The translations under genes and the position numbers were made by a program. Positions 2,791 through 31,699 of a DNA stretch of 34,708 nt are shown piece after piece. This stretch comes from Oscillospiraceae bacterium (lineage in GTDB: Bacteria; Bacillota; Clostridia; Oscillospirales; Ruminococcaceae): the NCBI GenBank assembly GCA_031551695.1, contig JAVBNG010000056.1, positions 1 through 34,708 of the forward strand. Reading direction: 5' to 3'. Under the pieces are notes generated by a model, which saw only the letters and a list, made by a program, of their open reading frames with translations, was not told where the DNA came from and ran no database searches. Every line of letters begins with the position of its first letter. Position 1 is the stretch's first letter.

Positions 2791-2825
2791 GCGGCTTTTA
2801 CAAAAACAGTAACCGGCCTTTTATC

Positions 2826-2853
2826 AAAACCACTCGCCTGGCGAGTGGTTTTC
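2826..2853. terminator. Bidirectional terminator-like hairpin (ccactcgcc / ggcgagtgg flanked by A-run and T-run)
   Basis: Inverted repeat read directly. It lies 36 nt after the GGDEF stop. Confidence 0.5.
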
Positions 2854-2866
2854 ATTAGACAAAAAA

Positions 2867-2888
2867 CCGCCGCAGATTCCTGCGGCGG
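2867..2888. repeat. 22-bp palindromic hairpin element ccgccgcagattcctgcggcgg, copy 1
   Basis: Perfect 9-bp stem with a 4-nt loop. An identical copy lies at 3065-3086. On the minus strand it is followed by a T6 run, which is terminator-like. Confidence 0.6.
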
Positions 2889-3064
2889 CAAGGCTGTCAA
2901 AGAACGCATGAGCGCACAGGGGCCGGGGAACGCATAAGCTTATCGTCAGCCGCAAGCCGAATCGTGAACAACATTCCTTCGTTGTGCACGAAGCGGCGCG
3001 GAAGGTAGATGAGCGTTGCGTCGCCGGACACTGCGCGCGGGCTAATCTTTTTTTGACAAGCTGA

Positions 3065-3086
3065 CCGCCGCAGATTCCTGCGGCGG
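3065..3086. repeat. 22-bp palindromic hairpin element ccgccgcagattcctgcggcgg, copy 2
   Basis: Identical to 2867-2888 and in direct orientation 198 bp away. It lies 34 nt downstream of the minus-strand kinase stop. Confidence 0.6.
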
Positions 3087-3119
3087 CATATGGCGCTGTA
3101 AACATGCCCGTGAACCGTT

Positions 3120-5204
3120 TTACAAAGCCGCCTCGGCGCCCGGCACCTCCTCGGCAACAATTTGCGCCGGGGAAAGAAAGCGCAGCAACACACGGTCTAT
3201 CTCGCTGATTTCGATCGGCTTCGAAATGTAGTCGCTCATGCCGCCGTTAAGGTATAATTCCCGCATGCCCTTTATGGCGTTCGCAGTGAGGGCCACGATG
3301 GGCGTGTCCTTGTTTTTGGCCGACGACTGCCGGATTCTTTTCGTGGTTTCAATGCCGTCCATATTGGGCATCATATGGTCCATAAAAATGATGTCATACT
3401 GCTTTTTATCTCCCATTTCGCAGGCTTTCAGTCCGCTTCGCGCAACGTCCGGCACAATGCCGTAGTGCTGCAGGATCTCTGCGCATACGATCAGGTTGAT
3501 CTCGTTGTCGTCCACCACCAGCGCTTCGGTGTTCCGCAGCTTGAAGCGGCCGATTTTCACCTGCCGCCCCGCCGTTTCCACTTCGCAGTTTCCGCCGGCG
3601 CAAAGGCGTTTTACCAATGCGGGAACCAGCAAGGGTTCGTAGATAAAATCCACATTTGCCGCCAGCATGGCCTCTTCCGCCTCTTGCAGGGCCAAAACAG
3701 CCGTCAGCCGCGCCGCGCCGAAACGCGCGGGGTTTTCGGCCACGGCGGCGGACCATGCCCCATAATCGTAAAACACGTGGGTGAACGCGCCGGTTTCGCC
3801 CCCCAGCTCGTCCGGCGCATACACAAAGCGCACCGGCACGCCCAGCCGCTCGAAGACAGGGCGACAAAAGGCACAGTGCCGCCCGCACAAAACCAGCACC
3901 CGGCAGTTTTCATCAATGGCGGAAAGGTCCGCCACCACGCCCTTGCCCTCATCTTTTTGCAACACAGAAAAGGAAAATGTGCTGCCCTCGCCAAATTTCG
4001 TCTGCACGGCAAGTTCACCGCCCATCATCTCCACAATGTGCTTCGAGATGGCAAGGCCAAGCCCCGTGCCCTCGTGGGTGCGGTTTTTGGGCAGGTCCAG
4101 CCGGCTGAACGCGTTAAACATGTGGGGCGCGTCCTCCTCGCGGATGCCCGCGCCGGTGTCCCGCACGGTAAAAGTGAGGCGCGCGTTGCCGTCTTCGGCC
4201 GCCTCGCTTTCAATGCTGAAATACACATGGCCTTCGTCCGTGAACTTGATGGCGTTGTTGATCAGGTTCAAAAGCACCTGCTTCAGGCGCAGTTCGTCGC
4301 CGAACATGGCGGCGGGCAGCGCCGGGAAGATGTCGGCCACAAAGCCAAGGCCCTTGTTCGCTGCCTTCAGATTCATAATGCCGGCCACGTCGTTCACAAA
4401 AGACATGCTGTCATAGCTCGCAGGGCTAAGCTCCATTTTTTCCGCGTCCAGCTTTGAATAATCCAGGATGTCGTTGATGATTTTGAGTAAGTTGGACGAC
4501 GCCGACTGGATATTGGCAAGGTATTTGACCTGTATATTGTCAAGGGCCGTTGCGGCCATCAGATCCGCCATACCCTTGATGGCGTTCATTGGCGTGCGAA
4601 TCTCATGGCTCATATTGGCCAAAAACGCGCTTTTGGCCGAGGAAGATTGCTCTGCCTTTTCCTTCAGCAGGTTTATTTCGGTCATGTCGTGCAGCACCAC
4701 CACCACGCCCATGCAAAGGCCGGCCGGGTCAATGGCGGGGGAAACGGTCACGTTCATATGCAGGCTGTCCCCGTTTGTGTCCACCAGCTTGCCGTTGTAC
4801 TTTTGGCGCGTTTTTTCTTCCATCACGCTGTGGCACACAGTTTCCAGCTGCGTAATCCACGTGTCGGGAAAACGACGGCCAAACACAACGCGCAAAGGTT
4901 TATCCCGTAAATCGTTCATGCTGGAATAATGCAGCTGGCCATAGCTTACCTCTGTGCCAAGAATGAAATGCAGCGCCGCGTCCAGCACGAAAATCATATC
5001 CGGGCAGTTGGCTAAAAGCAGCTGGTTGTATAAAAACTGCCGCTCCTTTTCCGCCGAGTTGAAGTCGCGCATGCGCTCGATATTCTGCGTCATCACGGCG
5101 TTGTATTTTTTGTCGCGCTCCAGCCGCGCAACTTTGCGTTTCAGGTTCTCGCACTCGCGCCTGGCGGCCTCATATAATTCGCGGTAGTTTTGCCCGTCGT
5201 TCAT
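3120..5204 (-). CDS. Soluble hybrid sensor histidine kinase: coiled-coil N-terminus, PAS domain, HisKA, HATPase_c, a degenerate Cys-rich pseudo-receiver, then a C-terminal REC domain
   Basis: H-box MSHEIRTPMNAIKGM. DTGAGI and [10 protein letters not shown] boxes. C-terminal ALVVDDNEINL ... IIFMDHMMPNMDG ... TANA. No TM helices. AGGA RBS before the ATG at 5204. Confidence 0.85.
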   Translation of the reverse strand: MNDGQNYRELYEAARRECENLKRKVARLERDKKYNAVMTQNIERMRDFNSAEKERQFLYNQLLLANCPDMIFVLDAALHFILGTEVSYGQLHYSSMNDLRDKPLRVVFGRRFPDTWITQLETVCHSVMEEKTRQKYNGKLVDTNGDSLHMNVTVSPAIDPAGLCMGVVVVLHDMTEINLLKEKAEQSSSAKSAFLANMSHEIRTPMNAIKGMADLMAATALDNIQVKYLANIQSASSNLLKIINDILDYSKLDAEKMELSPASYDSMSFVNDVAGIMNLKAANKGLGFVADIFPALPAAMFGDELRLKQVLLNLINNAIKFTDEGHVYFSIESEAAEDGNARLTFTVRDTGAGIREEDAPHMFNAFSRLDLPKNRTHEGTGLGLAISKHIVEMMGGELAVQTKFGEGSTFSFSVLQKDEGKGVVADLSAIDENCRVLVLCGRHCAFCRPVFERLGVPVRFVYAPDELGGETGAFTHVFYDYGAWSAAVAENPARFGAARLTAVLALQEAEEAMLAANVDFIYEPLLVPALVKRLCAGGNCEVETAGRQVKIGRFKLRNTEALVVDDNEINLIVCAEILQHYGIVPDVARSGLKACEMGDKKQYDIIFMDHMMPNMDGIETTKRIRQSSAKNKDTPIVALTANAIKGMRELYLNGGMSDYISKPIEISEIDRVLLRFLSPAQIVAEEVPGAEAAL

Positions 5205-5240: not shown

Positions 5241-6449
5241 TTACAGCGCCATCAGGGTGATGGAAGAATGCAGCGAGCGGCTGGTCGCCTCGCCGCCGGG
5301 CACAGGCACGGGGCAAATTTCGCCCATGGCGTAAAACCCGCAGGAGGCCAGGTCCTTCAGGGCCGGCGTGTTGGTAATGTAGTCCCCTTCCACGCTGGTG
5401 TCGCCGCTCATCACCAGGTAACGCCCGCCGCACGAGGTGGAAAATAGCGTGCTGTATCGGTATTCGTCCGATGTATTCTCCTCAATTTTCTTCACCATTT
5501 CCTCGAAGCAGGCAATGCTGGACTGGCGAACCTGGTCACTGGTCAGCACGCAAACGGCAAGCTCCCAGCCAACAGGCATCTCGCCGGAAAAGGCCACGGC
5601 GCCGGTTTCAAAGTCAATGTCGACGATATTTCGAACTTTTTGCTCTTCACCAAAGCTGCCCTTCGGGTAAATGATGACCGGGCTGGAGGCGTAGGTTGCG
5701 ATACAGCTGCTCAGCATCTGGGTGGGGAAAGTGGTAAGGCCGTTTTTGGCCATGAACTGGAGGAAGGTGTCCTCCCCCACTTTTTGCACCACGTTGCCGG
5801 TGGCGGCGGTGATAACGGCGGTTTTGTCCGGCACCATGAACTTGGCCGTACCACAGGCAAACTGCGGCCGGATACCCCCGCCCAACATGTTGATGAGCAG
5901 GCGGTCGCGGTAGGGTACACCATTCACAAAAATCTCGGAGACATTGGTCTCAAGGTCGCTGGAAGACACCGCGCCGTACTGCGGCACACCGCCGGAAACC
6001 CTTGCCAGGATGTCGGTGGTGTAGTCCGGGGTCAGGTCGGTGCTGTAGGGCTGCAGGGTAATCAGCATTTTCGGCCGTTCGCCAATGCGCTCCAACGCCA
6101 GATTGTACGCGTCGGCAACCACCTGTTCCATGTTTTCCCGCGTCAGCGGCTCGGACAAAGCCATCGACCCCACCAGCTCCTCGTCGCCGGTGATAATCAT
6201 AAAGCTGACGCTGATGTCCTCGTCGGCGTGGATGCGGATAAAGGAGAGCGCTGTGGCGCCATAGATGTCAAAATCATATCTCTCGCTCAGTTTTTTCATC
6301 ACCGCTTCGCTGTCGATGGTGGAATCACACACGGCGATTCCCATGGTGCGCCGGCCGAAGGTGACATTGTCGGCAATTTGCGCGCCAAGCTCCTCGCACA
6401 GGTAGTCCACATCGTTCATCTCACTGGTGCGTGCCGTAAAAACCTGCAT
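5241..6449 (-). CDS. FIST-domain protein (FIST_N + FIST_C putative ligand-sensing module), first gene of an operon with the soluble hybrid kinase
   Basis: The approximately 400-aa stand-alone architecture is typical of FIST proteins. The C-terminal GFYAMGEICP ... LHSSIT resembles the conserved GFYxxGEIxP ... lHNqT end of FIST_C. AGGAGG RBS 7 nt before the ATG. There is a 36-nt gap to the kinase. Confidence 0.55.
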   Translation of the reverse strand: MQVFTARTSEMNDVDYLCEELGAQIADNVTFGRRTMGIAVCDSTIDSEAVMKKLSERYDFDIYGATALSFIRIHADEDISVSFMIITGDEELVGSMALSEPLTRENMEQVVADAYNLALERIGERPKMLITLQPYSTDLTPDYTTDILARVSGGVPQYGAVSSSDLETNVSEIFVNGVPYRDRLLINMLGGGIRPQFACGTAKFMVPDKTAVITAATGNVVQKVGEDTFLQFMAKNGLTTFPTQMLSSCIATYASSPVIIYPKGSFGEEQKVRNIVDIDFETGAVAFSGEMPVGWELAVCVLTSDQVRQSSIACFEEMVKKIEENTSDEYRYSTLFSTSCGGRYLVMSGDTSVEGDYITNTPALKDLASCGFYAMGEICPVPVPGGEATSRSLHSSITLMAL

Positions 6450-6489
6450 GCCAAGCCCTCCTGTTTCTTATTGTATAAAGCAGCATTAC

Positions 6490-6519
6490 ATTTTAGCATT
6501 CTTGGCAAAACATGTCAAT
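6490..6519 (-). promoter_or_regulatory. Sigma70-like promoter for the FIST / hybrid-kinase operon (TTGACA, 18-nt spacer, TAAAAT on the minus strand)
   Basis: Hexamers read directly from the minus-strand sequence upstream of the AGGAGG RBS. Confidence 0.45.
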
Positions 6520-6558
6520 TTTCGGCAAATCGATCAACAATTTCCAGCGCCAAACGCA

Positions 6559-6589
6559 CCGGCCCCCTGTGCGGCGCACAGGGGGCCGG
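6559..6589 (-). terminator. GC-rich hairpin (13-14 bp stem) downstream of the flotillin gene
   Basis: The inverted repeat ccggccccctgtgc / gcacagggggccgg lies 28 nt after the flotillin stop. Its U-tract is weak. Confidence 0.4.
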
Positions 6590-6616
6590 TCCATATATGG
6601 TGTGGGAACGCCCGAG

Positions 6617-8218
6617 CTAAACGGTCGTTTCGACAAACACCGGCTGCTGCGGGGCTTCGGGCATCCCGCTAATGTTCAGGTTTCTGGTGGTCTGCCCCTC
6701 AAATGTTTTGGCGCGCATGACCTCTTTCAAGTCAAACCCCACGGTTTCCTGCAGGGCTTCGCTTACCGCCACAAGGCCGCTGGTCACGTAACCGGCCACG
6801 TCGCTCACGCCGTCGCCGCCGGCGTTTCCGCCGCCGATAATGGTGATTTTATCGATGCTTGCAAAGGGCTCGGCCACGGCCTTGGCAAGCGCCGGCAGAA
6901 TGTCCGCGATGATCTGCAGCTTGCCCGCCTCGTCCATCTTGGCAAGGGCCTCAGCCTTCTTTTCCAGCGCCTCTGCCTCGGCCAGGCCCTTGGCCCGGAT
7001 GGCGTCGGCTTCCGCCTGGCCGCGCGCTTCAATGATCTTGGCCTCGGCATTGCCCCAAAGCTCTTGGGCTTTGGCCTGGGCCTCGCCGTCCAGCCGGGTC
7101 TTCTCCGCTTCGGCTTCGGCTTTGGCAATCTCTTCAAACTTCCGCGCCTCAGCCTCCAGCCGGCGGCGCTCTTTCTCCGCCTCGGCGGGCTCCAGCACCG
7201 TGGCAATCAACTCCGCCCGGGCGCGTTCCGCCTGGCTTTTGGCCAGCTCGATGTTCTTGTTTTCCTCCGCGATGCGCACCTGCACCTCGGCTTCGGTCAC
7301 TTCCAGCTGGCGGTTCTTTTCCAGCACCAAAGCGTCCAACTGGGTGTTTTTCACTTCTTTCGAGGTAATGTTCGCCTGGATCTCATAGGCCGCGTCGGAC
7401 ACAGCCTTTGTGGTCTCCGATTCCTTTCGGTAGGCCTCCACCTTCAGCTGTTTTTCCTTTTCGGCCAGGGCAATCTCGCTCTCGGCCCGCAGCTGGGCCT
7501 CGCGCCCGGCGCGGCCGGCTTCGGCCGTTTTGATCATCTGCTCCTTTGCCGCCTCGGCGGTTTTGATCTGCTGCTCCTTGGCGGCCTCGGCCTCGGCAAT
7601 GGCTGCTTGGGCCTTCACCTTGGCAATTTGCTCTTTGCCAAGAGACACGATGTATTCTTCGTCGTCGGAGATGTCGTTGATGGTAAAGGATTTGATTTCA
7701 AGGCCCATGGTGCCGAGGGCGGAGTCTACCACCTTTTGCACGTCGGTGGAGAATTTCTCCCGGTCGTCGTACAGTTCTTCCACGCTCATGCGGGAGACGA
7801 TTTCGCGCAGCTTGCCCGTGGCCACCTCCATCACGATGTTCTGGATGGCCTTTTTGGTGGCGGCCTCGTTCTCACTGCTGAACTGCTGCACCGCGGTGAT
7901 GATACTCTCGTTTTCGGCCTTCACTTTTACAATGAGCACGCCGTTGGCGTTGATGGGCACGCCCAGGCGGGTTTTTGTTTTGCTGATGGAAACGTTGATC
8001 TGGATGTTTTCAAGGGTGATGGTGTCTATGCGCTGGAAACCGGGAATGACCATCTTACCCCCGCCGTGCACCACTTTGGGCGCGCCCAGGCCCACGATGA
8101 CGGCGGCCTTGTCGGACGGAACCTTTTTCCACGCGCTCAGCAGGCAAATCATGACGACCACAAGGGCGGCGATGATCACGATGGCCACGCCAAAGGGGCT
8201 TGTGAGTAAATTCAACAT
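6617..8218 (-). CDS. floT: Flotillin-family protein (SPFH/Band-7 domain plus Ala/Glu-rich flotillin repeats), FloT/YuaG-like
   Basis: N-terminal TM helix. SPFH core (VPINANGVLIVKV ... ). Long EA/KA-rich coiled-coil repeats (AEAEAAKEQ ...). The 533-aa size is typical of FloT. Confidence 0.85.
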   Translation of the reverse strand: MLNLLTSPFGVAIVIIAALVVVMICLLSAWKKVPSDKAAVIVGLGAPKVVHGGGKMVIPGFQRIDTITLENIQINVSISKTKTRLGVPINANGVLIVKVKAENESIITAVQQFSSENEAATKKAIQNIVMEVATGKLREIVSRMSVEELYDDREKFSTDVQKVVDSALGTMGLEIKSFTINDISDDEEYIVSLGKEQIAKVKAQAAIAEAEAAKEQQIKTAEAAKEQMIKTAEAGRAGREAQLRAESEIALAEKEKQLKVEAYRKESETTKAVSDAAYEIQANITSKEVKNTQLDALVLEKNRQLEVTEAEVQVRIAEENKNIELAKSQAERARAELIATVLEPAEAEKERRRLEAEARKFEEIAKAEAEAEKTRLDGEAQAKAQELWGNAEAKIIEARGQAEADAIRAKGLAEAEALEKKAEALAKMDEAGKLQIIADILPALAKAVAEPFASIDKITIIGGGNAGGDGVSDVAGYVTSGLVAVSEALQETVGFDLKEVMRAKTFEGQTTRNLNISGMPEAPQQPVFVETTV

Positions 8219-8267
8219 TGTAATCCCTCCACTCTATTTGTAAGTTTGTACTGGTTGTTAGCAGTTT

Positions 8268-8996
8268 TTATTGCAAGAGCTTGTTCTTGGCGGGCACCAC
8301 AGAGCAGAGGTTCTGTGCGCGGTCAATGTCCGAGACGATGACCTCTTCTCCCTCTTCAATGCGTTCCCGCCTGCAAATATCGGTGTCCATCTGCGCCCGG
8401 TAGGAAATCACCGCGCCCACGGCGTCCCGTGTTTCAATCAGGCCGGGGCTGTCCCGCGTGATGCGGAAGGTGACGCGGGCGTGCCGGAATTGCAGGTCGT
8501 TCTGCGCAAGGGCGTCTGCCTTGTTCCGCTTCATCGGCCACACCACAAACCGGTACAGCAATGCATAAGCCGCCACGGCCAGCGCCGCCCCCGCGATGAG
8601 CATGGCCGTCCTTGCCGCGCCGGTGAGGGTCTCCAGCGAAAAAATGCCGAAGGCACCCATCACGACGAAGGCCAGGCACAGGCTGTACAGGTTGAACCGC
8701 AGTGGGAAGCCGCCTCCGCCCGGCGGCGCCTCGGGTGCGTGCGCCACGTCCAGGTCCACACCGTCCGCCTCTATGGGAGGCCCGCCGGCGTCGAGGTCGA
8801 AGTCGGCGTCGAGGTCGGGCGCGTCGAAATCTACGCCGTCCAGCCCGCCGTCCACGGAAAGGTCCGTGTCCACGTCCAGCTCCGGGCCGGAATCTCCAAG
8901 GCCGCTGATGACGCTTGCCAGCAAATTCACCAGCGGAAGGCCCAGCCCCACGTAAATCATCACTTCAAACACAAATGCCAGCCTGCCAAAAAGCAT
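8268..8996 (-). CDS. NfeD-family membrane protein (YuaF-like flotillin partner) with an unusual Asp-rich acidic linker insert
   Basis: N-terminal TM helices and a C-terminal beta-rich soluble domain. It lies directly upstream of the flotillin gene in the same orientation, as in yuaF-floT. The ATG at 8996 has a GAAAGAAGG RBS. The GTG at 9014 is an alternative start. Confidence 0.6.
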   Translation of the reverse strand: MLFGRLAFVFEVMIYVGLGLPLVNLLASVISGLGDSGPELDVDTDLSVDGGLDGVDFDAPDLDADFDLDAGGPPIEADGVDLDVAHAPEAPPGGGGFPLRFNLYSLCLAFVVMGAFGIFSLETLTGAARTAMLIAGAALAVAAYALLYRFVVWPMKRNKADALAQNDLQFRHARVTFRITRDSPGLIETRDAVGAVISYRAQMDTDICRRERIEEGEEVIVSDIDRAQNLCSVVPAKNKLLQ

Positions 8997-9141
8997 GTAA
9001 ACCTTCTTTCCCACTTCTTTGGTGTGTTTAGAAATTTAAAAACGGGTATATTTAAAAAACCTGACGTCAAGGTTTGAACCGTCGGAGAGATGTCATATTT
9101 ATGGAAAAAATGTTCTGTTCAAGGGCCTGCGCCCGTTCCTG

Positions 9142-9684
9142 TCACTTCAGGATCGCCGCAATCCGTTCGTCCGCGTCGGCCTTCAGCCGAGTGGAAAGAT
9201 GCGCCAGCACCATGGCGTGCAGCACCTTCAGCAAACGGCGGAACAGCTCATCCTCCATCTGCATTTTTTTCAAAACATCCGAGATGATCGCTTCCAGATC
9301 GGTGTTGGCGCCCAGGGCGTCCTCCGGCAAAACAGCCAGTGTGCGGAGAAAGGCAAAGTAGATGGCGGACGCCGCGTCTTTGCGCAGGCCGCCGACATGC
9401 GCAATCAGCCGGCAGATATGCTCGATGAGGACGACAGGCTGCAGCATGTTGATGAGGACGATGGAGCAAAACTGCTCTTTATCGTATTTTTTGTTCACCG
9501 GCGGGGCCACAAACCCCCGCTTCACCCAGTTTTGCACCGTGTGGGCCGAAAGCCCCGTCAACTGCAACACCTGGGAAAGCACCAGTCCGTTGGCCACAAA
9601 CAGTGTCCCGATGAACTCCTCCGCGCCGTTTGTCCACTCCGTCTCTACCACAGTGCCCGGCAATATGCTTCCCGTATCGTCCAC
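9142..9684 (-). CDS. DUF1836-family protein with an N-terminal MerR-like HTH
   Basis: LSQVLQLTGLSAHTVQNWVKRGFVAPP matches the conserved HTH core of DUF1836 proteins. Length is 180 aa. Confidence 0.5.
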   Translation of the reverse strand: MDDTGSILPGTVVETEWTNGAEEFIGTLFVANGLVLSQVLQLTGLSAHTVQNWVKRGFVAPPVNKKYDKEQFCSIVLINMLQPVVLIEHICRLIAHVGGLRKDAASAIYFAFLRTLAVLPEDALGANTDLEAIISDVLKKMQMEDELFRRLLKVLHAMVLAHLSTRLKADADERIAAILK

Positions 9685-9767
9685 CTCCTGTCCCTGGTTG
9701 ATGAGGCAAGTATATCATACGGTCACGTGACTGTCAATGATAATCGTATAATCTTTTTTTGTAATTA

Positions 9768-10211
9768 TCAGACCGTGCGTTCCATTTGCGCGTCCAGCTT
9801 GGCAAGAATGGCCGCCAGCTGGGCTTTTTCCCCGGCGTCCAGCACGGTAAACAATTGCCGCGCATAGGCCGCCTTTGCCTTTTCCAGCGCCTCGGCCTGT
9901 TTTCGGCCCGCGGGGGTAAGGCGCAAATACACACCGCGCCTGTCGGCCTCGTTCGGCGTACGCTCCACCAGGCCTTTGGCCTCCAGCTTTGCCAGCAGCT
10001 CACTCAAAGAGGCCGGGCGAATGTCCATATCTTGCGCCAGCTCCTTTGGCGAGGCACCGTCGCAAACCAGCAGCCGCCGCATCAGCCGCCCCTGCCCGCG
10101 CAAAAACTCCGCGCCGCCCACACCGGCTTTCAGCGCGGTCACCTCGCGCCGCATTTTGCCCGCCGTGCTGCGAAACGCGGAAAACAATTCCTCGCCAGTT
10201 AGATTCTCCAC
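9768..10211 (-). CDS. MarR-family transcriptional repressor (GTG start)
   Basis: Winged-helix segment LAQDMDIRPASLSELLAKLEAKGLVER ... DRRGVYLRLTPAG. GGAGG RBS 9 nt before the GTG. Divergent from the ABC exporter. Confidence 0.8.
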   Translation of the reverse strand: MENLTGEELFSAFRSTAGKMRREVTALKAGVGGAEFLRGQGRLMRRLLVCDGASPKELAQDMDIRPASLSELLAKLEAKGLVERTPNEADRRGVYLRLTPAGRKQAEALEKAKAAYARQLFTVLDAGEKAQLAAILAKLDAQMERTV

Positions 10212-10296
10212 TTCTCCGCCTCCTTGTGTCTATTAAGTAACTAAGATATATGGCTGTTTCCAATATTAGAAAGAACCACGCCAAAAGTCAATCCAT

Positions 10297-10356
10297 TTAG
10301 GTGCCTAACTACTTGACAAGAGCATAATTAACACTATAATTTAGTTAGGAACCTAA
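10297..10356. promoter_or_regulatory. Promoter of the ABC exporter (TTGACA 10313-10318, 16-nt spacer, TATAAT 10335-10340) bracketed by two TTAGGnnCCTAA inverted-repeat boxes (10297-10308 and 10345-10356)
   Basis: Hexamers and pseudo-palindromes read directly. The AT-rich intergenic region lies between divergent marR and ABC genes. Confidence 0.45.
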
Positions 10357-10412
10357 TAAAATAAGACGTTAAGACTACCGCGCCTGCCCACGCGGGGATT
10401 GGAGAGAAAAAT

Positions 10413-12209
10413 ATGGCAAAACTGCGTTATTTAGAAGAAAACACACCACCTCCCAAAATTTCGGCGGCGTTTGTACGGCGCATTTTGGGGTACTTTGTTC
10501 CATATAAGGCACAGCTGGCCGGTGTGGTGGCGCTTGTTTTAGGCGCGGCGGCGCTGGGCCTTGTGCCCACGCTGCTGCTGCAAAACATTGTGGACGTAGC
10601 CCTGCCGCGGCAAAACATCCCGCTGCTGGGGGCACTGGTGGGGGCATCCGTGCTGGCCACGGTAGTGCTGAACCTGCTGAAGGTGGGGCAAGGGTATTTA
10701 AGCACCCTCGTCAGCAAAAAAATCACATTCCACATGAAAAACCAAATGTTTCGGCATTTGGCCTTTATGCCCTCCGCCTTTTTTGAAGCGGCAAAGCCCG
10801 GCGAAATCACCACCCGCATGAACAGCGATGTAGACGGCATCCAGGAGGTTTTCCGCACCACGGCGGTGAACGCGCTGAACGGCGTGCTCACTTTGTCGGC
10901 CACGTTGGTGGCGCTGTTTGCCATGAACTGGAAGTTGGCGCTGGTGGGCCTTGCCACGGTGCCGCTGTTCATTTTGCCCACCCGGCGCGTGGGGCGCGTG
11001 CGGTTCAAGATAACGGCGCAAAGCCAGTTCAAAATGGACGAACTGAACGGCCGCGTGCAGGAGGTGTTCACCTGCGGCGGCGCCACGCTGATGAAGCTTT
11101 GCACCACCGAGGAAGCCGAGTGCGCGGCCTTTGCCACTATAAACGGCGACGTAACGAAGCTGCAGCTGAAGGAAACGCTGGCCGGGCGGTGGTTCCGCAT
11201 GGCCATGGACGTGTTCACTACCATCGGCCCCCTGGCGGTGTATTTTGTGGGCGGGCTGCTGCTTACCCGGGGCGAAATGACCGTGGGCGGCATTTTGGCC
11301 TTTGCGTCCCTGCTGGGGCGCCTGTACGCGCCCGTGACGCAAATTTCCAACATCCACACAGATTTTATGCGTTCTTTTGCCCTGTTTTCCCGCATTTTTG
11401 ATTATCTTGACATGGAACAGTCCATCACGGACGCGCACAGCGCGCCGGAAACGGAAACGCGGGCCGGCGGCGGCGAAATCTGCTTTGACAATGTGGACTT
11501 TGCCTACGCGGACGGCAATCAGGTGCTTTCCGGCGTCAGCTTTACGGCGCGCCCGGGCGAAACGGTTGCGCTTGTCGGCCCATCCGGCGCGGGCAAAAGC
11601 ACCGTCACCGGCCTCATTCCCCGCCTGTACGACGTAAGTGGCGGCAAAATCACCGTGGACGGCACGGACGTGCGTGACATGAAGCTTGCCGCCCTGCGCG
11701 GGCAGGTGGGCTTCGTCTCCCAGGAGGCGTACCTGTTCAGCGGCACCGTGCGCGAAAACCTGCTGTACGGCAACGAAACGGCCACAGACGAGGAGATGGA
11801 AGCCGCCTGCAAAGCGGCCTATATCCACGATTTCATCCTGGCCCTGCCAAAGGGATACGACACAAACGTGGGCAACCGCGGGGTCAAGCTTTCCGGCGGC
11901 GAAAAACAGCGCGTCGCCATCGCCCGCGTCATTTTGCAAAACCCGCGCATCCTGCTGCTGGACGAAGCCACCTCCGCGCTGGACTCCCTCAGCGAGCACG
12001 CCATACAGCGCGCGCTGGAAAATCTTTTGCAAAACCGCACCGCCATCGTCATCGCCCACCGCCTGTCTACCATTGTGAACGCGGACCAGATTTTGGTGAT
12101 GGAAAACGGCGCCATCGCCCAGCGCGGCACCCACGCCGGCCTGCTGGCCGCCGGCGGCCTATACCGCCGGCTGTACGAGACCCAGTACCGCCAGGGTGCA
12201 GCCGCATAA
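10413..12209 (+). CDS. Fused ABC exporter (6-TM permease domain + ATP-binding domain), multidrug/lipid exporter type
   Basis: Walker A GPSGAGKST. Signature LSGGEKQRVAIAR. Walker B ILLLDEATSALD. H-loop IAHRLST. N-terminal 6-TM ABC_membrane region. GGAGAG RBS. Confidence 0.9.
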   Translation: MAKLRYLEENTPPPKISAAFVRRILGYFVPYKAQLAGVVALVLGAAALGLVPTLLLQNIVDVALPRQNIPLLGALVGASVLATVVLNLLKVGQGYLSTLVSKKITFHMKNQMFRHLAFMPSAFFEAAKPGEITTRMNSDVDGIQEVFRTTAVNALNGVLTLSATLVALFAMNWKLALVGLATVPLFILPTRRVGRVRFKITAQSQFKMDELNGRVQEVFTCGGATLMKLCTTEEAECAAFATINGDVTKLQLKETLAGRWFRMAMDVFTTIGPLAVYFVGGLLLTRGEMTVGGILAFASLLGRLYAPVTQISNIHTDFMRSFALFSRIFDYLDMEQSITDAHSAPETETRAGGGEICFDNVDFAYADGNQVLSGVSFTARPGETVALVGPSGAGKSTVTGLIPRLYDVSGGKITVDGTDVRDMKLAALRGQVGFVSQEAYLFSGTVRENLLYGNETATDEEMEAACKAAYIHDFILALPKGYDTNVGNRGVKLSGGEKQRVAIARVILQNPRILLLDEATSALDSLSEHAIQRALENLLQNRTAIVIAHRLSTIVNADQILVMENGAIAQRGTHAGLLAAGGLYRRLYETQYRQGAAA

Positions 12210-12216
12210 AAAAACG

Positions 12217-12258
12217 CCGGGGCCTGTTATCGAACAGGTTCCCGGCGCTTTTATTTCA
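12217..12258. terminator. Bidirectional Rho-independent terminator between the convergent ABC exporter and the large hybrid kinase
   Basis: cgccggggcctgtt ... aacaggttcccggcg stem followed by CTTTTATTT. Preceded by an A7 run. Confidence 0.55.
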
Positions 12259-12293
12259 TACACAACCGCAATTCAAGATGTTTTTTGGGATGG

Positions 12294-15296
<3,003 letters not shown>

Positions 15297-25929: not shown

Positions 25930-25968
25930 AAATAGCCCGGGCAGCTTGCCGCCCGGGCTGTTTCGTTT
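25930..25968. terminator. Bidirectional terminator between the BMP lipoprotein gene and the convergent metal-transport operon
   Basis: agcccgggc ... gcccgggct stem followed by GTTTCGTTTGG. Preceded by AAAAATA. Confidence 0.5.
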
Positions 25969-25986: not shown

Positions 25987-26139
25987 TCAATGCTTGTGCT
26001 CTTCCTTGTGCTCATGGCCGTGGTCATGGCTGTCCTTTTTTACAGGGTTGCCGTTTTCGTCCAGTTCCTCTTCCGTGCCAAACAAGTCGTCCATATCCTC
26101 AAGGTCGTCCAAAATCCCGTGATGTCCCTCGTGCATCAT
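25987..26139 (-). CDS. Small ORF (50 aa) encoding an acidic His-rich peptide MMHEGHHGILDDLEDMDDLFGTEEELDENGNPVKKDSHDHGHEHKEEHKH. Absent from the supplied ORF track.
   Basis: Translated by hand from the minus strand. A strong AAAGGAGGTG RBS lies 6 nt before the ATG-ATG. It sits 34 nt downstream of the 194-aa gene in the ATPase operon. 9 of 50 residues are His. Confidence 0.5.
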   Translation of the reverse strand: MMHEGHHGILDDLEDMDDLFGTEEELDENGNPVKKDSHDHGHEHKEEHKH

Positions 26140-26173: not shown

Positions 26174-26758
26174 TCATTCCGGGTCGTACAGGTACATCCG
26201 CTTGGCTTTGTAATTGGTTTCGCAAGTCTCTATCCAATCCTCCGGGATCTCCCCCAAGGGAAAGCGCGCCACCATGCAAGGCTCAATGTAGCCGGGAAAA
26301 ATGGAGCGGTCCTCCGGCAAAACGTCGCTTTCATAGCACAAAATTTCAAGGCCGTGCTTGTAAACGCTCAGGGTTTCGGCGTCCAGGTCGATATGGTACT
26401 GCCAGCGGCAGCGCCACCCCAGCAAAAACGAGCTGTAATCCACCATGAAGGGGTAACGATCCCGGATGGGGGCAAGGGCGTCCTTCGTATATTTCAGCGC
26501 CTCCACCCAGCCGAAATCGTCCGTCCAGGTTTGTTCGGGCATATATTTTTTGTAGCCCTCGCGCTGGGCGGGCGTCATCGGGTCGTCTTGGTTTACCAAT
26601 GTAATGCCGTCGTATATTTCGCATAGTTCATTAACGGAATTTTCCCGGCAGAACGCCACCACTCGCCTGCCCATCACGCGCAGCTCCGCGTTGCGGTGCA
26701 CATAGCTCGCTTTTTGCCTGCCGTCCTTTATCAGGACGATCACACCTTTTTTTGCCAT
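26174..26758 (-). CDS. Hypothetical cytoplasmic protein (194 aa) with no recognisable family, co-operonic with the P1B ATPase
   Basis: The ATG at 26758 (MAKKGVIVLIKDG ...) lies 13 nt after the ATPase stop. The N-terminal 28 codons of the ORF-track entry overlap the ATPase gene. Confidence 0.6.
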   Translation of the reverse strand: MAKKGVIVLIKDGRQKASYVHRNAELRVMGRRVVAFCRENSVNELCEIYDGITLVNQDDPMTPAQREGYKKYMPEQTWTDDFGWVEALKYTKDALAPIRDRYPFMVDYSSFLLGWRCRWQYHIDLDAETLSVYKHGLEILCYESDVLPEDRSIFPGYIEPCMVARFPLGEIPEDWIETCETNYKAKRMYLYDPE

Positions 26759-26771: not shown

Positions 26772-28697
26772 CTATTTTTCGCCCGCGAATTTCCAGCCCA
26801 GCAGGCGGGACGAGTTGAGCACGACGAAAATGGACGACGCATTGTGGATGATGGCGGCTAAAATCGGGTTCAAAAAACCGAGGCCCGACAGCGCGATGCC
26901 GATGACATTCACGAATACGGCAAACACCCAAATATTTTGCTGGATGATGCGGTAGGTGCGGCGGCACAGGGCAAAAATGGCGGGCAGAGCGTCGATATTG
27001 TCCGACATCAGGGTGATGGACGCCGCCTCAATGGCAACGTCCGTGCCCGCGGCCCCCATGGCGATGCCCACGTCCGCCAGCGCCAGCGCGGGCGCGTCGT
27101 TCACGCCGTCGCCCACCATGGCCACCACTTCGCCCTTCGCCTTCATTTCTTTAATGGCGTCCAGCTTTTCCTCCGGCAGCAGGTTCGCCTTGAACTCGTC
27201 AATGCCCGCCTCGGCGCAAATGGCCTTCGCCGTGTACTCGTTGTCGCCGGTCAGCATCACGATATGCTGGATGCCGATGTCCCTTAGCTTTTGCATGGAA
27301 GCAGGCACGGTTTCGCGGATGGTGTCCGCCACAGAGAGCGCCCCCAGCACCCGGCCGTCCTTCACGGCAACCAGCGCCGTGCGGCCAAAGCTCTCTTCCT
27401 GCCGCACAAAGGGCATGATTTCGTCCGCTCCCGCGGGGGCGTCCTCCAGCAGCTTTTTGTTCGAAACCTCATACACCGCGCCGTTGTCCACAGCCTTCAC
27501 GCCCCGGCCAAACAGCATTTCAAATTCGGCGTTGGGGATGTCTTTCATCCTCATCTGTTTTTGGCCTGTTAAAAACGAAACAACGGCCTTTGCAATGGGG
27601 TGGTTCGAGTTCTTCTCGCAAACAGCCAAGCTATACAAAAACTCTTCCTCCGAAGCGCCCGGGGCAACCTGCGTCGCAATCACCTCCGGCGTACCGTTTG
27701 TGATGGTGCCGGTTTTATCAAGGCACAGGGTGGTCACTTTGGCGCTTGTTTCAATGGCCACGCCGCCTTTGATGAGCACGCCGCGCTTGGCCCGGTTGCC
27801 CACGCTGGCCACCACCGCCGTGGGCGTGGCCAGCACCAGCGCGCAGGGGCACGCGATGACAAGGATGGTCATCACACGCATGATGTCCCGCGTGATGAGG
27901 AACGTGATGACGCAGATGACAAGGATGATGGGCAAAAAATACTGGGCGAACACGTCGGCGGATTTTTGGGCGTCGCCCTTGTTCTCCTGCGCGGCCTTCA
28001 CCGTGGCGATGATTTTGCCCAGCACGGTGTTGCTGCCCAGCTTTTCCGCCTCTATCTCAATCACGCCGGTCTCGTTCAACGTGCCCACAAACACCTTGTC
28101 GCCCACGGTTTTGTCCGCCGGCATGGACTCGCCCGTGATGGACGCCTCGTTGATGGCGGCCTGCCCCTTTTTGATCACGCCGTCTACCGCTATTTTTTCG
28201 CCCGCGCGCACCTGGATCATGCTGCCCACGCGCACGCTTTTCAGCGGCACTTCTTTGTACTCGCCGTCCACCAGCATACGGCAGGTGGGCGGCACCAGGC
28301 GAATGAGCTCCCGCACGGCGTTTTTGGTTTTCTCCATGGTCAAATCTTCCAAAAACTCGCCGAAGATCATCATGAACGCCACAATGGCGCCGGACAGGTA
28401 TTCCCCCACCGCCGTGGTGCCGATGAGGGCCAGCACCACCAGCATGCCCGCGGTGATTTTCTTTTTGGCGATGGTTGCCTGCACGGTGGACTTGATAACG
28501 AACACCCCGCCCAGAACAAGCGGGAGGATGGACACGGGGAACGGAATGACCCCCACCCACAAATAATCGAACAGCGCGCCCAGAACGATGAGCACCGCCA
28601 GCACGGCGGGGAAAATGAACACTTTAAAATTAAAAGACGATTTTTTCTTCGCCTTTTGGGCCGCAGCCGCTGCAGCCGGCTGTTTCACTGCTTCCAT
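26772..28697 (-). CDS. P1B-type heavy-metal translocating ATPase with no N-terminal metal-binding (HMA/CxxC) domain
   Basis: CPC motif in VIACPCALVLATPTAV. DKTGTIT phosphorylation site. GDGVNDAPAL hinge. HNASSIFVVLNS in the last TM. The ATG at 28697 has a GGGAGG RBS. The GTG at 28727 from the ORF track is probably upstream leader. Confidence 0.85.
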   Translation of the reverse strand: MEAVKQPAAAAAAQKAKKKSSFNFKVFIFPAVLAVLIVLGALFDYLWVGVIPFPVSILPLVLGGVFVIKSTVQATIAKKKITAGMLVVLALIGTTAVGEYLSGAIVAFMMIFGEFLEDLTMEKTKNAVRELIRLVPPTCRMLVDGEYKEVPLKSVRVGSMIQVRAGEKIAVDGVIKKGQAAINEASITGESMPADKTVGDKVFVGTLNETGVIEIEAEKLGSNTVLGKIIATVKAAQENKGDAQKSADVFAQYFLPIILVICVITFLITRDIMRVMTILVIACPCALVLATPTAVVASVGNRAKRGVLIKGGVAIETSAKVTTLCLDKTGTITNGTPEVIATQVAPGASEEEFLYSLAVCEKNSNHPIAKAVVSFLTGQKQMRMKDIPNAEFEMLFGRGVKAVDNGAVYEVSNKKLLEDAPAGADEIMPFVRQEESFGRTALVAVKDGRVLGALSVADTIRETVPASMQKLRDIGIQHIVMLTGDNEYTAKAICAEAGIDEFKANLLPEEKLDAIKEMKAKGEVVAMVGDGVNDAPALALADVGIAMGAAGTDVAIEAASITLMSDNIDALPAIFALCRRTYRIIQQNIWVFAVFVNVIGIALSGLGFLNPILAAIIHNASSIFVVLNSSRLLGWKFAGEK

Positions 28698-28727: not shown

Positions 28728-28785
28728 ATCCCCCCATGGGGGTTATTCTTGTGTTCATTATATGCCCCTTGCCGCGGGTTGTCAA
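28728..28785 (-). promoter_or_regulatory. Promoter-operator module A: TTGACA (28785-28780), 17 nt, TATAAT (28762-28757), then the palindrome ATCCCCCCATGGGGGTTAT (28728-28746) in the leader of the ATPase operon
   Basis: Consensus hexamers with ideal 17-nt spacing, read on the minus strand. The C6-AT-G5 tract palindrome flanked by AT matches the CsoR/RcnR operator architecture. Confidence 0.6.
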
Positions 28786-29837
28786 GCGGGAAAACCAGCC
28801 AGTTCACGAATCACTTGCGAAAGGCACCGGTACGCCAGCAACAGCGACGCTTCGGAAATATATTCGCCCTTGCCGTGGATGCCGCCCACGCGGTTGCCCG
28901 GGTGCAGCGGAAAAAAGCCCAGCACCGGCAGGCCCGCCGCGCGGAAGTGCCGGTTGTCGCTTTGGCCGGGGGCAATGTAGGGCATGGCGCCCCACGCGTG
29001 CTCCATTGCCCGCAGCACACCCGATATGGCAGGCAATGCGCGCCGGTACAGTGCCGAAGATGGCATCCGCGCATATTCCGGCGCTTCCAGCAGTGCCGCA
29101 AGGCCGCTGTAAAAATGCCGCTGCGGAATGTGCCGCCCGCCAAAAAGCCCCGGCAGCGCCCGGATGTAACCCAGCGTGGTTTCGTCGTAAAGGCCGAGGA
29201 CGGCGGCGCGGCGGTACAGTGCCTGCTGTTTTTCCAACGAGGGCGGCGCGCCCGGCCCATCGGCCTTTTGCAGGCCCATTTCTCCGGTTTGCACAGTGAA
29301 CAGCCACTTATCCCCCATCGGCACCGGAATGCCGCCGCCTTCCCCCAGCACAAGGGCCACGCGGCGGAACACGTCCGTTTGCTCCAACAGCCACTTTGTG
29401 CCAAGCTCGCCGCCGGTTTCTTCATCGGCGGTTGCGGCAAACAGCACGGTTTTTTGCGGCGTGCGGCCGCTTTGCGCCATGGCGCACAGCACATGGGCCC
29501 AAACGGCGGCGTTGCCCTTGCAGTCCAGCGTGCCGCGGCCGTACAGCCTGCCGTTTTTGCGCACAAGCCGCGTGGAAGAAACGCCTACGGGCGTTTCATA
29601 GGCGGCGGTGTCCAGGTGGGTGTGCACCAAAATGCTTTCCTCGCTTCGCCCGGGTATTCGCGCCACCAGGCTCCCCCGGCCGGGAAGGGGCTCGTGCAGC
29701 GTGTTTTCCACGCCGCACCGCCGGAAAAAGGCATCCAAAATTTCGGCCGCCCGCGTTTCGTTATGCGCCGGGGGCGTTGTATCGGTATTGACAAGCCCGG
29801 AGAGAAGTGCAATCATAGAAGCAAGCATATCCCCCAT
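28782..29837 (-). CDS. M20-family metallopeptidase (ArgE/DapE/PepV/aminoacylase-like)
   Basis: Motifs HTHLDTA and GRGTLDCKG (compare HxDVV and GRGAxDxKG of M20), and the ATADEETGGELG metal-ligand region. The true start is downstream of promoter B (ATG at 29837, 29828 or 29816). The ORF-track TTG at 29891 lies inside the -35 hexamer. Confidence 0.75.
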   Translation of the reverse strand: MGDMLASMIALLSGLVNTDTTPPAHNETRAAEILDAFFRRCGVENTLHEPLPGRGSLVARIPGRSEESILVHTHLDTAAYETPVGVSSTRLVRKNGRLYGRGTLDCKGNAAVWAHVLCAMAQSGRTPQKTVLFAATADEETGGELGTKWLLEQTDVFRRVALVLGEGGGIPVPMGDKWLFTVQTGEMGLQKADGPGAPPSLEKQQALYRRAAVLGLYDETTLGYIRALPGLFGGRHIPQRHFYSGLAALLEAPEYARMPSSALYRRALPAISGVLRAMEHAWGAMPYIAPGQSDNRHFRAAGLPVLGFFPLHPGNRVGGIHGKGEYISEASLLLAYRCLSQVIRELAGFPA

Positions 29838-29891
29838 CCCCCCATATGGTAACTGTGTTCGCAGTATATGCCCGGCGGGGGTTTCTGTCAA
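29827..29891 (-). promoter_or_regulatory. Promoter-operator module B: TTGACA (29891-29886), 17 nt, TATACT (29868-29863), then the G/C-tract element ATAT-C5-AT-C6-ATATGG (29827-29849) upstream of the M20 gene. It also lies in the intergenic region before the divergent CsoR-like gene.
   Basis: About 65 bp shares blocks with module A (tgtcaagcggg, tatatgccc, tgtgttc, C/G tracts), read directly. Confidence 0.6.
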
Positions 29892-29934: not shown

Positions 29935-30246
29935 ATGGACGACCACGGCCACGGCCATTCCCACACCCATTCGCCGGAGGATTACCAGCGGATGATCAAC
30001 CGCATGTCCCGCATCGTGGGCCACGCAAACGCCATCAAAAGCATGATGGAGGAACAGCGCGACTGCACGGAAATTCTGGTGCAAATTTCCGCCGTGCAGG
30101 CGGCGCTGAACAACCTTGGCAAGCTGATGCTGAAGGACCACATCGACCAGTGCATCGTGCACGCCATCGACGGCTCCACCGGCGAAGAGGAAAAAAAACG
30201 GGTGCTGAACAGCCTGAATGAGGCGATCGAAAAATTTATCCGTTAG
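29935..30246 (+). CDS. CsoR/RcnR-family (DUF156) metal-sensing transcriptional repressor with a His-rich N-terminal extension
   Basis: Family signature QRMINRMSRIVGHANAIKSMMEEQRDCTEILVQISAVQAALNNLGKLMLKDHIDQC. Ligand positions Cys (RDC) and His..Cys (HIDQC). N-terminus MDDHGHGHSHTHS. GGAGGTG RBS. Confidence 0.75.
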   Translation: MDDHGHGHSHTHSPEDYQRMINRMSRIVGHANAIKSMMEEQRDCTEILVQISAVQAALNNLGKLMLKDHIDQCIVHAIDGSTGEEEKKRVLNSLNEAIEKFIR

Positions 30247-30430: not shown

Positions 30431-31699
30431 ATGAGCGGCTATAATGCGGTATTGGCACGAAATACGAACGACGCACCGAACAATGCGTTGTATTCACAAA
30501 CGGTGGCTTTTTCCCACTACAACAACCTTTCGGCCCAGCTGCCCGCAGACCCCGCAACCGGCAAACTGGTGGCGGGCGGCGTGAAAGAGCAGACACAGCA
30601 GTGCTTCAAAAACATCGAGGCCGTGGTAAACAGCATCGGCCACGTGATGAGCGACGTCGTGCGCATCAGCGTGTTCGTGCGTGACATCAAGGACGTGGAC
30701 GCGGTGGACGAGGTGTACAAAACCTTCTTCCCCACCTATGTGCCCACGCGCACAACGGCCGCCGTGGCGGCCCTGCCCATGGACGCACTGGTGCAGGTGG
30801 AAGCGCTGGTCTCCAACGGCGAGGGCACCATTCCAAACGCGCCGCAGGCGGGCGATTTGATCAAGCTGGCAAACAACACGGCAAACGCGCCGGTAAGCGC
30901 CCTGTCCTCGCAGACGGTGGCGTTCTCCCATTACAACAACCTTTCGGCCCAGCTGCCCATCGACCCGAAAACCGGACGCCTGGTGCCGGGCGGCGCGGCG
31001 GCGCAGGCTGCCCAGTGCCTTGCGAACATCAAGGCCATTTTGGAAAGCATAGACGTTCCGTTGGATGATATTGTGAAAATGAACGTCTTTTTGACGAACC
31101 CGGCAAACAACAAGGCCGTGAACGAGGTGTACACCACCTTCTTCCCGGACTCCGGCATCGCCCGCGCCGCGGCCTACATGCCCGCGCGCACCACCATCGT
31201 CGCCGACGCTTTGCCCATGGGCGCTTTGGTGCAGATGGAAGCCGTGGTGTCCCACGGGGACGGCACGCCCCCGCAGGCGGTGGAGGACCGGCATGGCCTG
31301 ATTATTGAGGCAAACAACACGGACAGCGCGCCGAAAAGCCCGCTCTCCACGCAAACGGTGGCCTTCTCGCACTACAACCATCTTTCCGCCCAACTGCCGC
31401 GAGACCCGAAAACCGGCAAAACCGTGGCCGGCGGCGCAAAGGAGCAGGCGGCCCAGTGCCTTGCCAACATCAAGGCCATTGTGGAGAGCATCGGCCACGC
31501 CATGGCCGACGTGGTGAAAGTGAATATCTTCGTCAAAAACATCGCCGACATCGGCGCGGTGGACGAGGCCTACAAAACCTACTTCCCCGGTGGCGTGCCC
31601 GCGCGGAAGGTTTTGGGCGTGTCCGCCCTGCCGGACGACGCACTTGTTCAAATAGACGCCGTTGTGGCGAACGAGGAAGGGACGCCGCCCGTCGCATAA
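30431..31699 (+). CDS. Single polypeptide with three tandem RidA/YjgF/TdcF (endoribonuclease L-PSP, reactive-enamine/imine deaminase) domains
   Basis: Each domain of about 140 aa carries the RidA pattern (SQTVAFSHYNxLSAQLPxDPxTG ... AQCLANIKAI ... VVKxNxFxxN ... VDEVYxTFFP ... PAR ... ALP ... LVQxEAVV). The three copies are visible as about 420-bp DNA repeats. Confidence 0.8.
   Translation: MSGYNAVLARNTNDAPNNALYSQTVAFSHYNNLSAQLPADPATGKLVAGGVKEQTQQCFKNIEAVVNSIGHVMSDVVRISVFVRDIKDVDAVDEVYKTFFPTYVPTRTTAAVAALPMDALVQVEALVSNGEGTIPNAPQAGDLIKLANNTANAPVSALSSQTVAFSHYNNLSAQLPIDPKTGRLVPGGAAAQAAQCLANIKAILESIDVPLDDIVKMNVFLTNPANNKAVNEVYTTFFPDSGIARAAAYMPARTTIVADALPMGALVQMEAVVSHGDGTPPQAVEDRHGLIIEANNTDSAPKSPLSTQTVAFSHYNHLSAQLPRDPKTGKTVAGGAKEQAAQCLANIKAIVESIGHAMADVVKVNIFVKNIADIGAVDEAYKTYFPGGVPARKVLGVSALPDDALVQIDAVVANEEGTPPVA

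Follow-up and report, generated by a model that had tools for sequence, protein, structure and literature searches.

A Clostridial family of MHEG peptides encoded with P1B6-like ATPases and its probable part in metal export

A stretch of 34,708 nucleotides from an Oscillospiraceae bacterium (contig JAVBNG010000056.1 of GenBank assembly GCA_031551695.1, positions 1 to 34,708 of the forward strand), referred to here as the window, contains on its minus strand a 50-codon open reading frame (ORF) at the end of the operon of a P1B-type heavy-metal ATPase. Comparative analysis established the ORF as a true, strongly conserved gene. Its product belongs to a family of small Clostridial proteins, the MHEG peptides, whose genes accompany one type of ATPase in almost every locus that could be judged and whose N-terminal head is in one locus fused to that pump. 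On balance, the comparative evidence suggests that the peptide is probably a metal-induced, largely disordered, cytoplasmic and detachable metal-binding partner of the co-encoded P1B6-like exporter.

The peptide gene and its signals

The gene and the signals that frame it are as follows.

26139..25987, minus strand: peptide gene; initiation at ATG 26139 gives 50 aa, and at the adjacent ATG 26136 it gives 49 aa
26155..26146, minus strand: ribosome-binding site (RBS) AAAGGAGGTG, 6 nt ahead of the first ATG
25959..25934, minus strand: intrinsic-terminator-like hairpin with an 11-bp stem (9 GC pairs) followed by the T-run ATTTTTGTGT, ending the ATPase operon

The ORF translates to MMHEGHHGILDDLEDMDDLFGTEEELDENGNPVKKDSHDHGHEHKEEHKH, in exact agreement with the hand translation of 26139..25987 given in an earlier, sequence-only reading of the window. 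From its N-terminus the product has the MHEGxHG head, then the acidic amphipathic helix ILDDLEDMDDLFG, and after an acidic linker it ends in a His/Lys tail. It contains 9 His in 50 residues, the 18% already reported, together with 34% Asp plus Glu and no Cys. The strong RBS described 6 nt ahead of a double ATG was recovered, as were the 34-nt gap to the upstream gene, the stop of which is at 26174, and the terminator directly after the ORF. No terminator-like site was found between the upstream gene and the ORF. Within the ATPase operon the peptide gene comes last. A leader-peptide or attenuator role in the window was rejected because the gene stands last in the operon and is followed by a terminator. 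No signal peptide, transmembrane (TM) segment or hydrophobic stretch was found in the peptide, which agrees with the cytoplasmic location proposed earlier.

The double ATG (26134..26139, minus strand) offers two starts. The first lies 8 nt from the GGAGG core of the RBS, a spacing typical of the family, and the second, at 26136, lies 11 nt from it and yields the N-terminus MHEGHHG... with the invariant MHE that is typical of the family. The choice between them would matter if the free amine and His2 make up the metal site.

The gene is conserved and defines a family

The exact 50-aa sequence was present in the protein collection searched, with NCBI and Logan as sources. The gene had been supposed to be unlisted and unannotated; the protein in fact stands in NCBI-derived sets, where it has no name. 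The first search returned three relatives, with MHEGHHGILDDLED[MI]DDLFG in common. All loci fetched by way of the neighbouring gene p195 contained a short ORF that has this N-terminus and is preceded by a strong RBS. The equivalent RBS of homologous loci, AAGGAGGTGA, lies 7-10 nt upstream of the start, and a strong RBS is kept in every locus.

Selection on the frame was assessed over the first 20 codons with 12 independent 60-nt N-terminal coding sequences, one from each of 12 lineages. Third codon positions varied in 18 of 20 codons versus second positions in 2 of 20. The summed ratio of non-synonymous to synonymous variation (pN/pS) was 0.10 in frame and 1.5 and 5.1 in the other two frames. 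The check for homologous loci and for a synonymous pattern that had been proposed with the original reading was thus borne out in this frame only.

A profile search recovered 105 clusters at 90% identity, and an exhaustive profile search of 1.84 billion representatives returned 33 clusters at 50% identity, consisting of small proteins only (34-119 aa). Over all searches, family matches measured 29-119 aa. The family as used below comprises 40 distinct peptides in fetched loci and 125 members from protein searches. The source names are those of Clostridia (Lachnospiraceae, Oscillospiraceae, Lacrimispora, Intestinibacter and Lutisporaceae), and the named entries read 'hypothetical protein' only. 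A chance ORF, or a non-coding spacer at the operon end, might be suspected from the short length and from an acidic, His-rich, low-complexity composition that can arise by chance. It is refuted by the conservation pattern, that is, by a pN/pS of 0.10 in frame only, by more than 100 homologous clusters and by the strong RBS in every locus, and its remaining probability is negligible. The earlier proposal of a small genuine gene is accordingly upheld by conservation.

The peptide had no match in Pfam, even at E <= 10, or in NCBIfam. A profile search of PDB sequences with the peptide gave nothing significant, the best hit (E = 0.3) being the acidic 'DDIDLFG' stretch of eEF1-delta; a relation to that protein was rejected, the likeness being compositional only. 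A full-text literature search for the strings MHEGKHG and MHEGHHG and for longer forms found no paper. One 119-aa member of the representative library (P0123) carries the MHEG module fused to a DUF6370 domain (Pfam E = 4e-23) with a CGMC motif.

Linkage to one type of ATPase

The genes that share the locus with the peptide in the window are the following.

26174..26758, minus strand: p195, a 194-aa protein, a frequent but non-obligate neighbour of the peptide
26772..28697, minus strand: P1B-type heavy-metal ATPase, probable start ATG at 28697 (641 aa); the mechanical ORF runs from GTG 28727
28782..29816, minus strand: M20-family metallohydrolase, start uncertain, recurrent in the gene cluster
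29935..30246, plus strand: CsoR/RcnR-family repressor with a PF02583 match and a His-rich N-terminus

The sequence GGGAGG-N7-ATG at 28697 marks the probable true start of the ATPase. The pump has CPC in TM4 (VIACPCALVLATPT) and IIHNASS in TM6, and no HMA or other N-terminal metal-binding domain was found in it. All peptide-linked pumps have CPC in TM4, NIWxFAVxVN[VI]IG in TM5 and [IV]HNxSS in TM6, and the precomputed Pfam columns list no HMA domain in the partner ATPases. The closest solved structure to the window ATPase is a P1B-4 pump (7qbz, E = 7e-102), in which the matching positions read SPC and HEGS. The combination of CPC and HN has been termed a 'P1B6-like ATPase' by Boudehen et al., with Mycobacterium tuberculosis CtpC as the type example (PMC9374683), and the window pump, having both motifs, is P1B6-like by this definition. 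In the same work, small proteins of the PacL1/DUF1490 kind were required for CtpC, and DUF6110 was given as their counterpart in Firmicutes, both groups being small partners of P1B6 and P1B6-like pumps (PMC9374683).

The fetched loci were annotated by tblastn with the window ATPase, p195, the M20 hydrolase and the repressor. A P-type ATPase was found in the same locus as the peptide for 36 of the 40 distinct peptides, and in 35 cases it was an orthologue of the window pump (51-80% identity). In the thirty-sixth (L033) the locus ends 39 nt past the peptide and holds a CopA-like ATPase only. Three further peptides lie on contigs too short to judge the linkage, and L045 is the sole locus with 6-kb flanks and no ATPase.

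The gene order took at least six forms: ATPase-p195-peptide, as in the window, ATPase-peptide, peptide-ATPase-M20, ATPase-M20-peptide, ATPase-peptide-p195, and M20-peptide divergent from repressor-ATPase. Linkage that has outlasted this many rearrangements argues for functional coupling. The recurrent module comprises five genes, for an InrS-like repressor, an M20 hydrolase, a CPC/HN ATPase, p195 and an MHEG peptide, and is found in Clostridia of the gut and of anaerobic digesters.

The head and helix are conserved, the tail is not

The conserved block of the family is the N-terminal 20 residues, MHEG[KH]HGILD[DG]L[ED]DMD[DE]LFG. Among the 125 members, His2, Gly4 and Ile8 are invariant, Glu3 and His6 are each kept in 124, Gly20 in 122 and Phe19 in 121. 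The motif MHE, as in HypA, coincides with the called start in 107 of the 125 members; in the window it does so only if the second ATG is used.

Past residue 20 the peptides vary freely. In 55 of 125 members (44%) no His follows this point, and in 51 (41%) neither His nor Cys does; 54 tails have at least three His and 21 at least two Cys. Some tails are pure poly-Asp/Glu, giving a total length of 29-35 aa. Others, among them P0069, P0106, P0108, P0024 and P0099, have Lys/Phe-rich ends such as KKKKSFLGFGKK, KKGFLKWLFRKK and KKKFSLFNKKK, which we take to resemble amphipathic cationic membrane-targeting sequences of the MinD type. With so many members lacking tail His, the HDHGHEH tail of the window peptide is an optional accessory. 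The sequence-only reading had pointed to the His-rich motifs, HDHGHEH among them; the invariant features are instead the N-terminal head and the acidic helix. An AlphaFold2 (AF2) model of the peptide, built from an alignment of 49 sequences, has a short helix at residues 12-19, the rest being of low confidence, and suggests a disordered chain with one helical docking-type motif.

These data bear on the possibility that the peptide is a free cytosolic buffer or storage peptide of the Hpn kind, which would soak up metal through its His and acidic residues independently of the pump. The composition of the window member (18% His, 34% Asp plus Glu), its predicted co-induction with the exporter and the 54 members with at least three tail His would fit such a role. 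However, 55 members have no His beyond residue 20, conservation sits in a specific 20-residue module and not in composition, and buffering would not need a conserved docking-type helix. Near-obligate adjacency to one ATPase type, and the fusion of the head to that ATPase in one locus (L057, below), also speak against a pump-independent role, and free buffering is considered improbable.

Fused and tethered copies of the head

Three tethered versions of the peptide were found. In L057 a 675-aa CPC/HN ATPase (6001..8028) starts MHEGHHGILDDISTEEEEHHHTEQHSHH..., so that the head MHEGHHGILDD and a His-rich stretch precede the first TM helix. Directly upstream of this fused ATPase, at 5788..5985, lies a tandem second copy of 65 aa (MHEGHHGILDGVGEEHHNHDSHSCNACG...) with a C-terminal TM helix. 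A long p195 homologue in L045 (6001..6819) has the head, MHEGKHGIIDEWDD..., as its fused N-terminus; the fusion gene is followed by an M20 hydrolase gene and is divergent from an Opp/Nik-type ATP-binding cassette (ABC) importer. The exhaustive search recovered no further ATPase fusions, though a head in fused form has too few residues to score as significant in such a search.

In all three versions the MHEGxHGI head is kept and the LEDMDDLFG helix is lost or degraded. Such loss of the helix is expected if the head does the work and the helix serves only to find the partner in trans. The tethered copies, each a single observation, are suggestive of a head that is the working part and of a helix for docking in trans.

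The peptide might alternatively be a PacL-like scaffold or regulator, the acidic helix of which binds the ATPase in order to stabilise, localise or allosterically activate it, metal being secondary or regulatory and not handed over. After the head, the best-conserved stretch is indeed an acidic helix, amphipathic as docking motifs typically are, 41% of the members have neither His nor Cys in the tail, and some tails look like amphipathic membrane-targeting ends. Moreover, the role of PacL1 in CtpC abundance is independent of the PacL1 metal-binding motif (PMC9374683). Yet the most invariant features of the family are the two His, the Glu and their exact N-terminal position, and the tethered versions in L057 and L045, which keep the head and lose the helix, point to the head as the functional element. 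A role as scaffold or regulator without metal transfer is therefore judged rather unlikely.

A conserved N-terminus with a hypervariable C-terminus would also be expected of a precursor peptide, in which a leader precedes a variable core that the M20 hydrolase and/or p195 would process to a metal-binding product, in the manner of ribosomally synthesised and post-translationally modified peptides (RiPPs) or of metallophores. The M20 hydrolase and p195, the fold of which is an orphan, recur in the cluster, and some clusters adjoin Opp/Nik-type ABC importers. The 'cores', however, consist of His repeats or poly-Asp/Glu. Neither a recognisable RiPP maturase nor an exporter of the ABC or peptidase type was seen, and M20 is absent from some complete clusters (L003, L017). 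A leader would also hardly be expected as the fused N-terminal part of a membrane pump and of p195. Processing of this kind is very improbable. The specific possibility of a double-glycine or RiPP leader was rejected, since Phe precedes Gly20, both a maturase and a peptidase-ABC exporter are lacking, and a leader would be at odds with the N-terminal fusions.

Promoter, operator and repressor

The regulatory signals of the cluster in the window are listed below.

28785..28757, minus strand: sigma-70 promoter TTGACA-17-TATAAT, a perfect consensus, driving the ATPase-p195-peptide operon
28747..28728, minus strand: type-2 CsoR-family operator-like palindrome AATAACCCCCATGGGGGGAT, between the -10 box and the ATPase start
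29826..29848, plus strand: second operator-like site CATATCCCCCATCCCCCCATATG, in the divergent M20/repressor promoter region

Type-2 operators of the CsoR/RcnR family have two short G/C tracts 2-4 bases apart with AT-rich repeats outside (PMC3902906). Similar palindromes were found upstream of the ATPase gene, or of the peptide gene where that comes first, in 13 other loci (L002, L003, L006, L009, L010, L011, L027, L029, L035, L049, L050, L057 and L058). In the last of these, from Lacrimispora sp. NSJ-141 (GCA_021044755.1), a perfect operator, CATATCCCCCTATGGGGGATATG, follows a consensus promoter. Downstream of this promoter and operator, L058 (5880..10922) has the gene order peptide-ATPase-M20-CbiQ-ABC ATPase, and no repressor gene was found within 6 kb.

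The repressor of the window has the His-rich N-terminus, MDDHGHGHSHTHS, that was remarked on earlier. It had also been described as adjacent to the peptide gene; it lies 3.8 kb away, past the p195, ATPase and M20 genes. Its best solved relative is InrS, a Ni(II) sensor of cyanobacteria (5FMN, E = 8e-24), in an alignment that spans the His-rich N-terminal extension. A His, Cys, His and Cys of the repressor are aligned to InrS His21, Cys53, His78 and Cys82, the ligand residues identified in PMC7055735. By this alignment the cluster repressor is InrS-like, with the H-C-H-C ligand set.

The N-terminal MHE of HypA binds Ni through the N-terminal amine and His2 (PMC7055735). Taken jointly, the InrS-type ligand set and a Met-His-Glu start like that of HypA favour Ni(II)/Co(II) as the metal, and Zn is possible. 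The preference for Ni/Co is limited by three points: InrS also binds Cu(I) and Zn(II) in vitro (PMC4235346), CtpC is a Zn-resistance pump (PMC9374683), and no NiCo or other metal riboswitch was found by an Rfam scan of the window and 17 related loci, which yielded only tRNAs and one Clostridiales-1 RNA. Selectivity in the CsoR/RcnR family is, moreover, not fixed by sequence alone (PMC7055735).

Comparison with known systems

The closest analogue of the MHEG peptides is PacL1 (Rv3269, DUF1490), together with DUF6110. Like these, the window peptide is small (<100 aa) and largely disordered and is encoded in an operon with a P1B ATPase that has CPC in TM4 and HN in TM6. Its C-terminus is His/Asp-rich (DSHDHGHEH, against DLHDHDH in PacL1), and a chaperone-like or scaffold role would be expected by analogy. 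This C-terminal motif reads DSHDHGHEHKEEHKH in the window member; 55 of the 125 family members have no His in the tail. The differences argue for analogy without homology. Neither the window peptide nor the TM-anchored L057 variant matched DUF1490 (PF07371), and the peptide matched no DUF6110 profile, at Pfam E <= 10. The N-terminal TM anchor of PacL1 is absent from the window peptide, and the TM helix of the L057 variant is C-terminal. The MHEG family is conserved at the N-terminus (MHEGxHG and acidic helix), PacL1 at its C-terminal motif; the former is Clostridial and has a natural fusion to the pump N-terminus, the latter Actinobacterial.

In CopZ/Atx1 and the HMA domain of CopA, as here, a metal-binding module (predicted as such in the MHEG peptides) occurs as a fused N-terminal part of a P1B pump or as a separate small protein from the same metal-regulated operon, under a CsoR-family repressor. 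The MHEG peptide, however, has no ferredoxin-like fold (about 70 aa), no CxxC and no HMA (PF00403) match, being disordered with one short helix in the AF2 model. Its putative ligands are N/O donors (amine, His and Glu), which suit Ni, Co or Zn rather than Cu(I).

With HypA the family shares the Met-His-Glu start, invariant His2 and Glu3 and a motif pinned to the very N-terminus; such pinning fits metal coordination through the free amine and His2 (PMC7055735). In contrast to HypA, the 49-50-aa window peptide has neither Cys nor a two-CxxC Zn-binding domain, lacks the HypA fold and gave no HypA match in Pfam or NCBIfam. The context of the MHEG peptides is efflux, with no hyp or ure genes, whereas HypA acts in enzyme maturation. 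The His-rich, acidic, low-complexity tail of the window peptide resembles Hpn and Hpn-like proteins and the tails of HypB, SlyD and UreE, and could plausibly bind Ni or Zn. The His content of MHEG peptides is nevertheless much lower than that of Hpn, the tail is optional, and what defines the family is a specific N-terminal module, which is not repetitive, together with its linkage to a pump.

At the level of regulation, the cluster resembles InrS-nrsD of Synechocystis, with H-C-H-C ligands, a His-rich N-terminal extension and a CsoR-type inverted repeat overlapping the efflux promoter (PMC3320959). The exporter differs, being a P-type ATPase here and NrsD, of the major facilitator superfamily type, there, and in the window the response to Ni is predicted only.

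In view of these comparisons, of the motif strings absent from the literature search and of the unrelated PDB chains, the peptide is placed in a new family, non-homologous to those already described but of an established functional kind, the small accessory proteins of P1B pumps.

A model for the MHEG peptide

That the peptide handles metal is very likely from the comparative evidence. The metallochaperone-like role suggested in the sequence-only reading fits that evidence. The free storage or buffering role suggested alongside it is less likely, because the gene keeps its place beside the ATPase almost without exception across six or more gene orders, and the head is in one case fused to the pump at its N-terminus; both favour a dedicated partner of the ATPase over a free buffer. 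The analysis shows the gene to be real and establishes the family, its linkage to this ATPase type, the fusions, the operator and the InrS-like ligand set, whereas we infer metal binding by the head, docking by the helix, the direction of transfer and the identity of the metal.

At high metal the InrS-like repressor would leave the type-2 operator, and pump, p195 and peptide would be produced together. The free N-terminus of the peptide (Met1 amine, His2, Glu3 and His6) would then capture a divalent metal, as the MHE of HypA does Ni(II). The acidic amphipathic helix (residues 8-20) would dock the loaded head onto the pump or p195, upon which metal would be handed over, or the pump activated or stabilised. 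The variable tail may add capacity (His/Cys), charge (poly-Asp/Glu) or membrane affinity (Lys/Phe-rich ends).

Several observations count against the peptide as a metal-binding partner of this pump. The likeness of MHE to HypA extends over three residues only, and the first ATG in the window, which has the family-typical RBS spacing, would give MMHE and not MHE. The AF2 model of the peptide is of low confidence (predicted local distance difference test score, pLDDT, 65). Each fusion type was observed once. Finally, the pump may not be the sole client of the head, given that L045 has no ATPase within 6 kb.

In its most specific form the proposal is tentative: the MHEG peptides may be a new class of efflux metallochaperones, in which a disordered module of about 20 residues carries a HypA-like site of amine, His2 and His6 for Ni(II)/Co(II) (or Zn) and docks by its acidic helix so as to feed or gate the P1B6-like ATPase. 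If this is true, the N-terminal metal-binding domain of the pump would be supplied in trans, and the family would be the first dedicated chaperone of Ni/Co export, widespread in gut Clostridia.

Other genes of the cluster and its surroundings

No Pfam or NCBIfam match was obtained for p195, and its AF2 model (pLDDT 85, predicted TM-score 0.84) had no fold match in the PDB. The M20 hydrolase is short (about 342-355 aa) and recurs in most related lineages in varying position. It could not be assigned to a subfamily by NCBIfam, where no subfamily reached the cut-off, or by PDB searches. Directly downstream of the repressor gene, the window encodes at 30431..31699 (plus strand) a 422-aa protein with three tandem RidA/L-PSP (PF01042) domains.

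Some clusters adjoin Opp/Nik-type ABC importers or energy-coupling factor (ECF) components. In L017-L021, the lineage with poly-Asp/Glu tails, the ATPase-peptide pair is flanked at 1199..4695 and 7821..12995. Upstream are a PALP enzyme and two ornithine-cyclodeaminase-family genes, a set like SbnA/SbnB, and downstream is an Opp/Nik-type ABC importer. A Clostridiales-1 RNA (RF01699, 74 bits) lies between the upstream genes of L017 (2323..2469). The neighbourhood hints at a relation to metallophores.

Significance

Dedicated metal-export chaperones are well established for copper, CopZ being the example. For a mycobacterial zinc-resistance pump, PacL1 is a small chaperone-like partner (PMC9374683). 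The MHEG family bears on how P1B pumps without metal-binding domains obtain Ni, Co or Zn from a buffered cytosol. With 20 residues the MHEG head can be synthesised and is a very small, chemically tractable candidate, and the family holds natural 'experiments' in the form of a pump fusion, a TM-anchored copy and tails of differing chemistry. Lacrimispora sp. NSJ-141, an isolate genome with a clean promoter-operator-peptide-ATPase unit, offers a convenient experimental system. The family is also a concrete case of a sub-50-aa gene that annotation pipelines have called and that has never been named.

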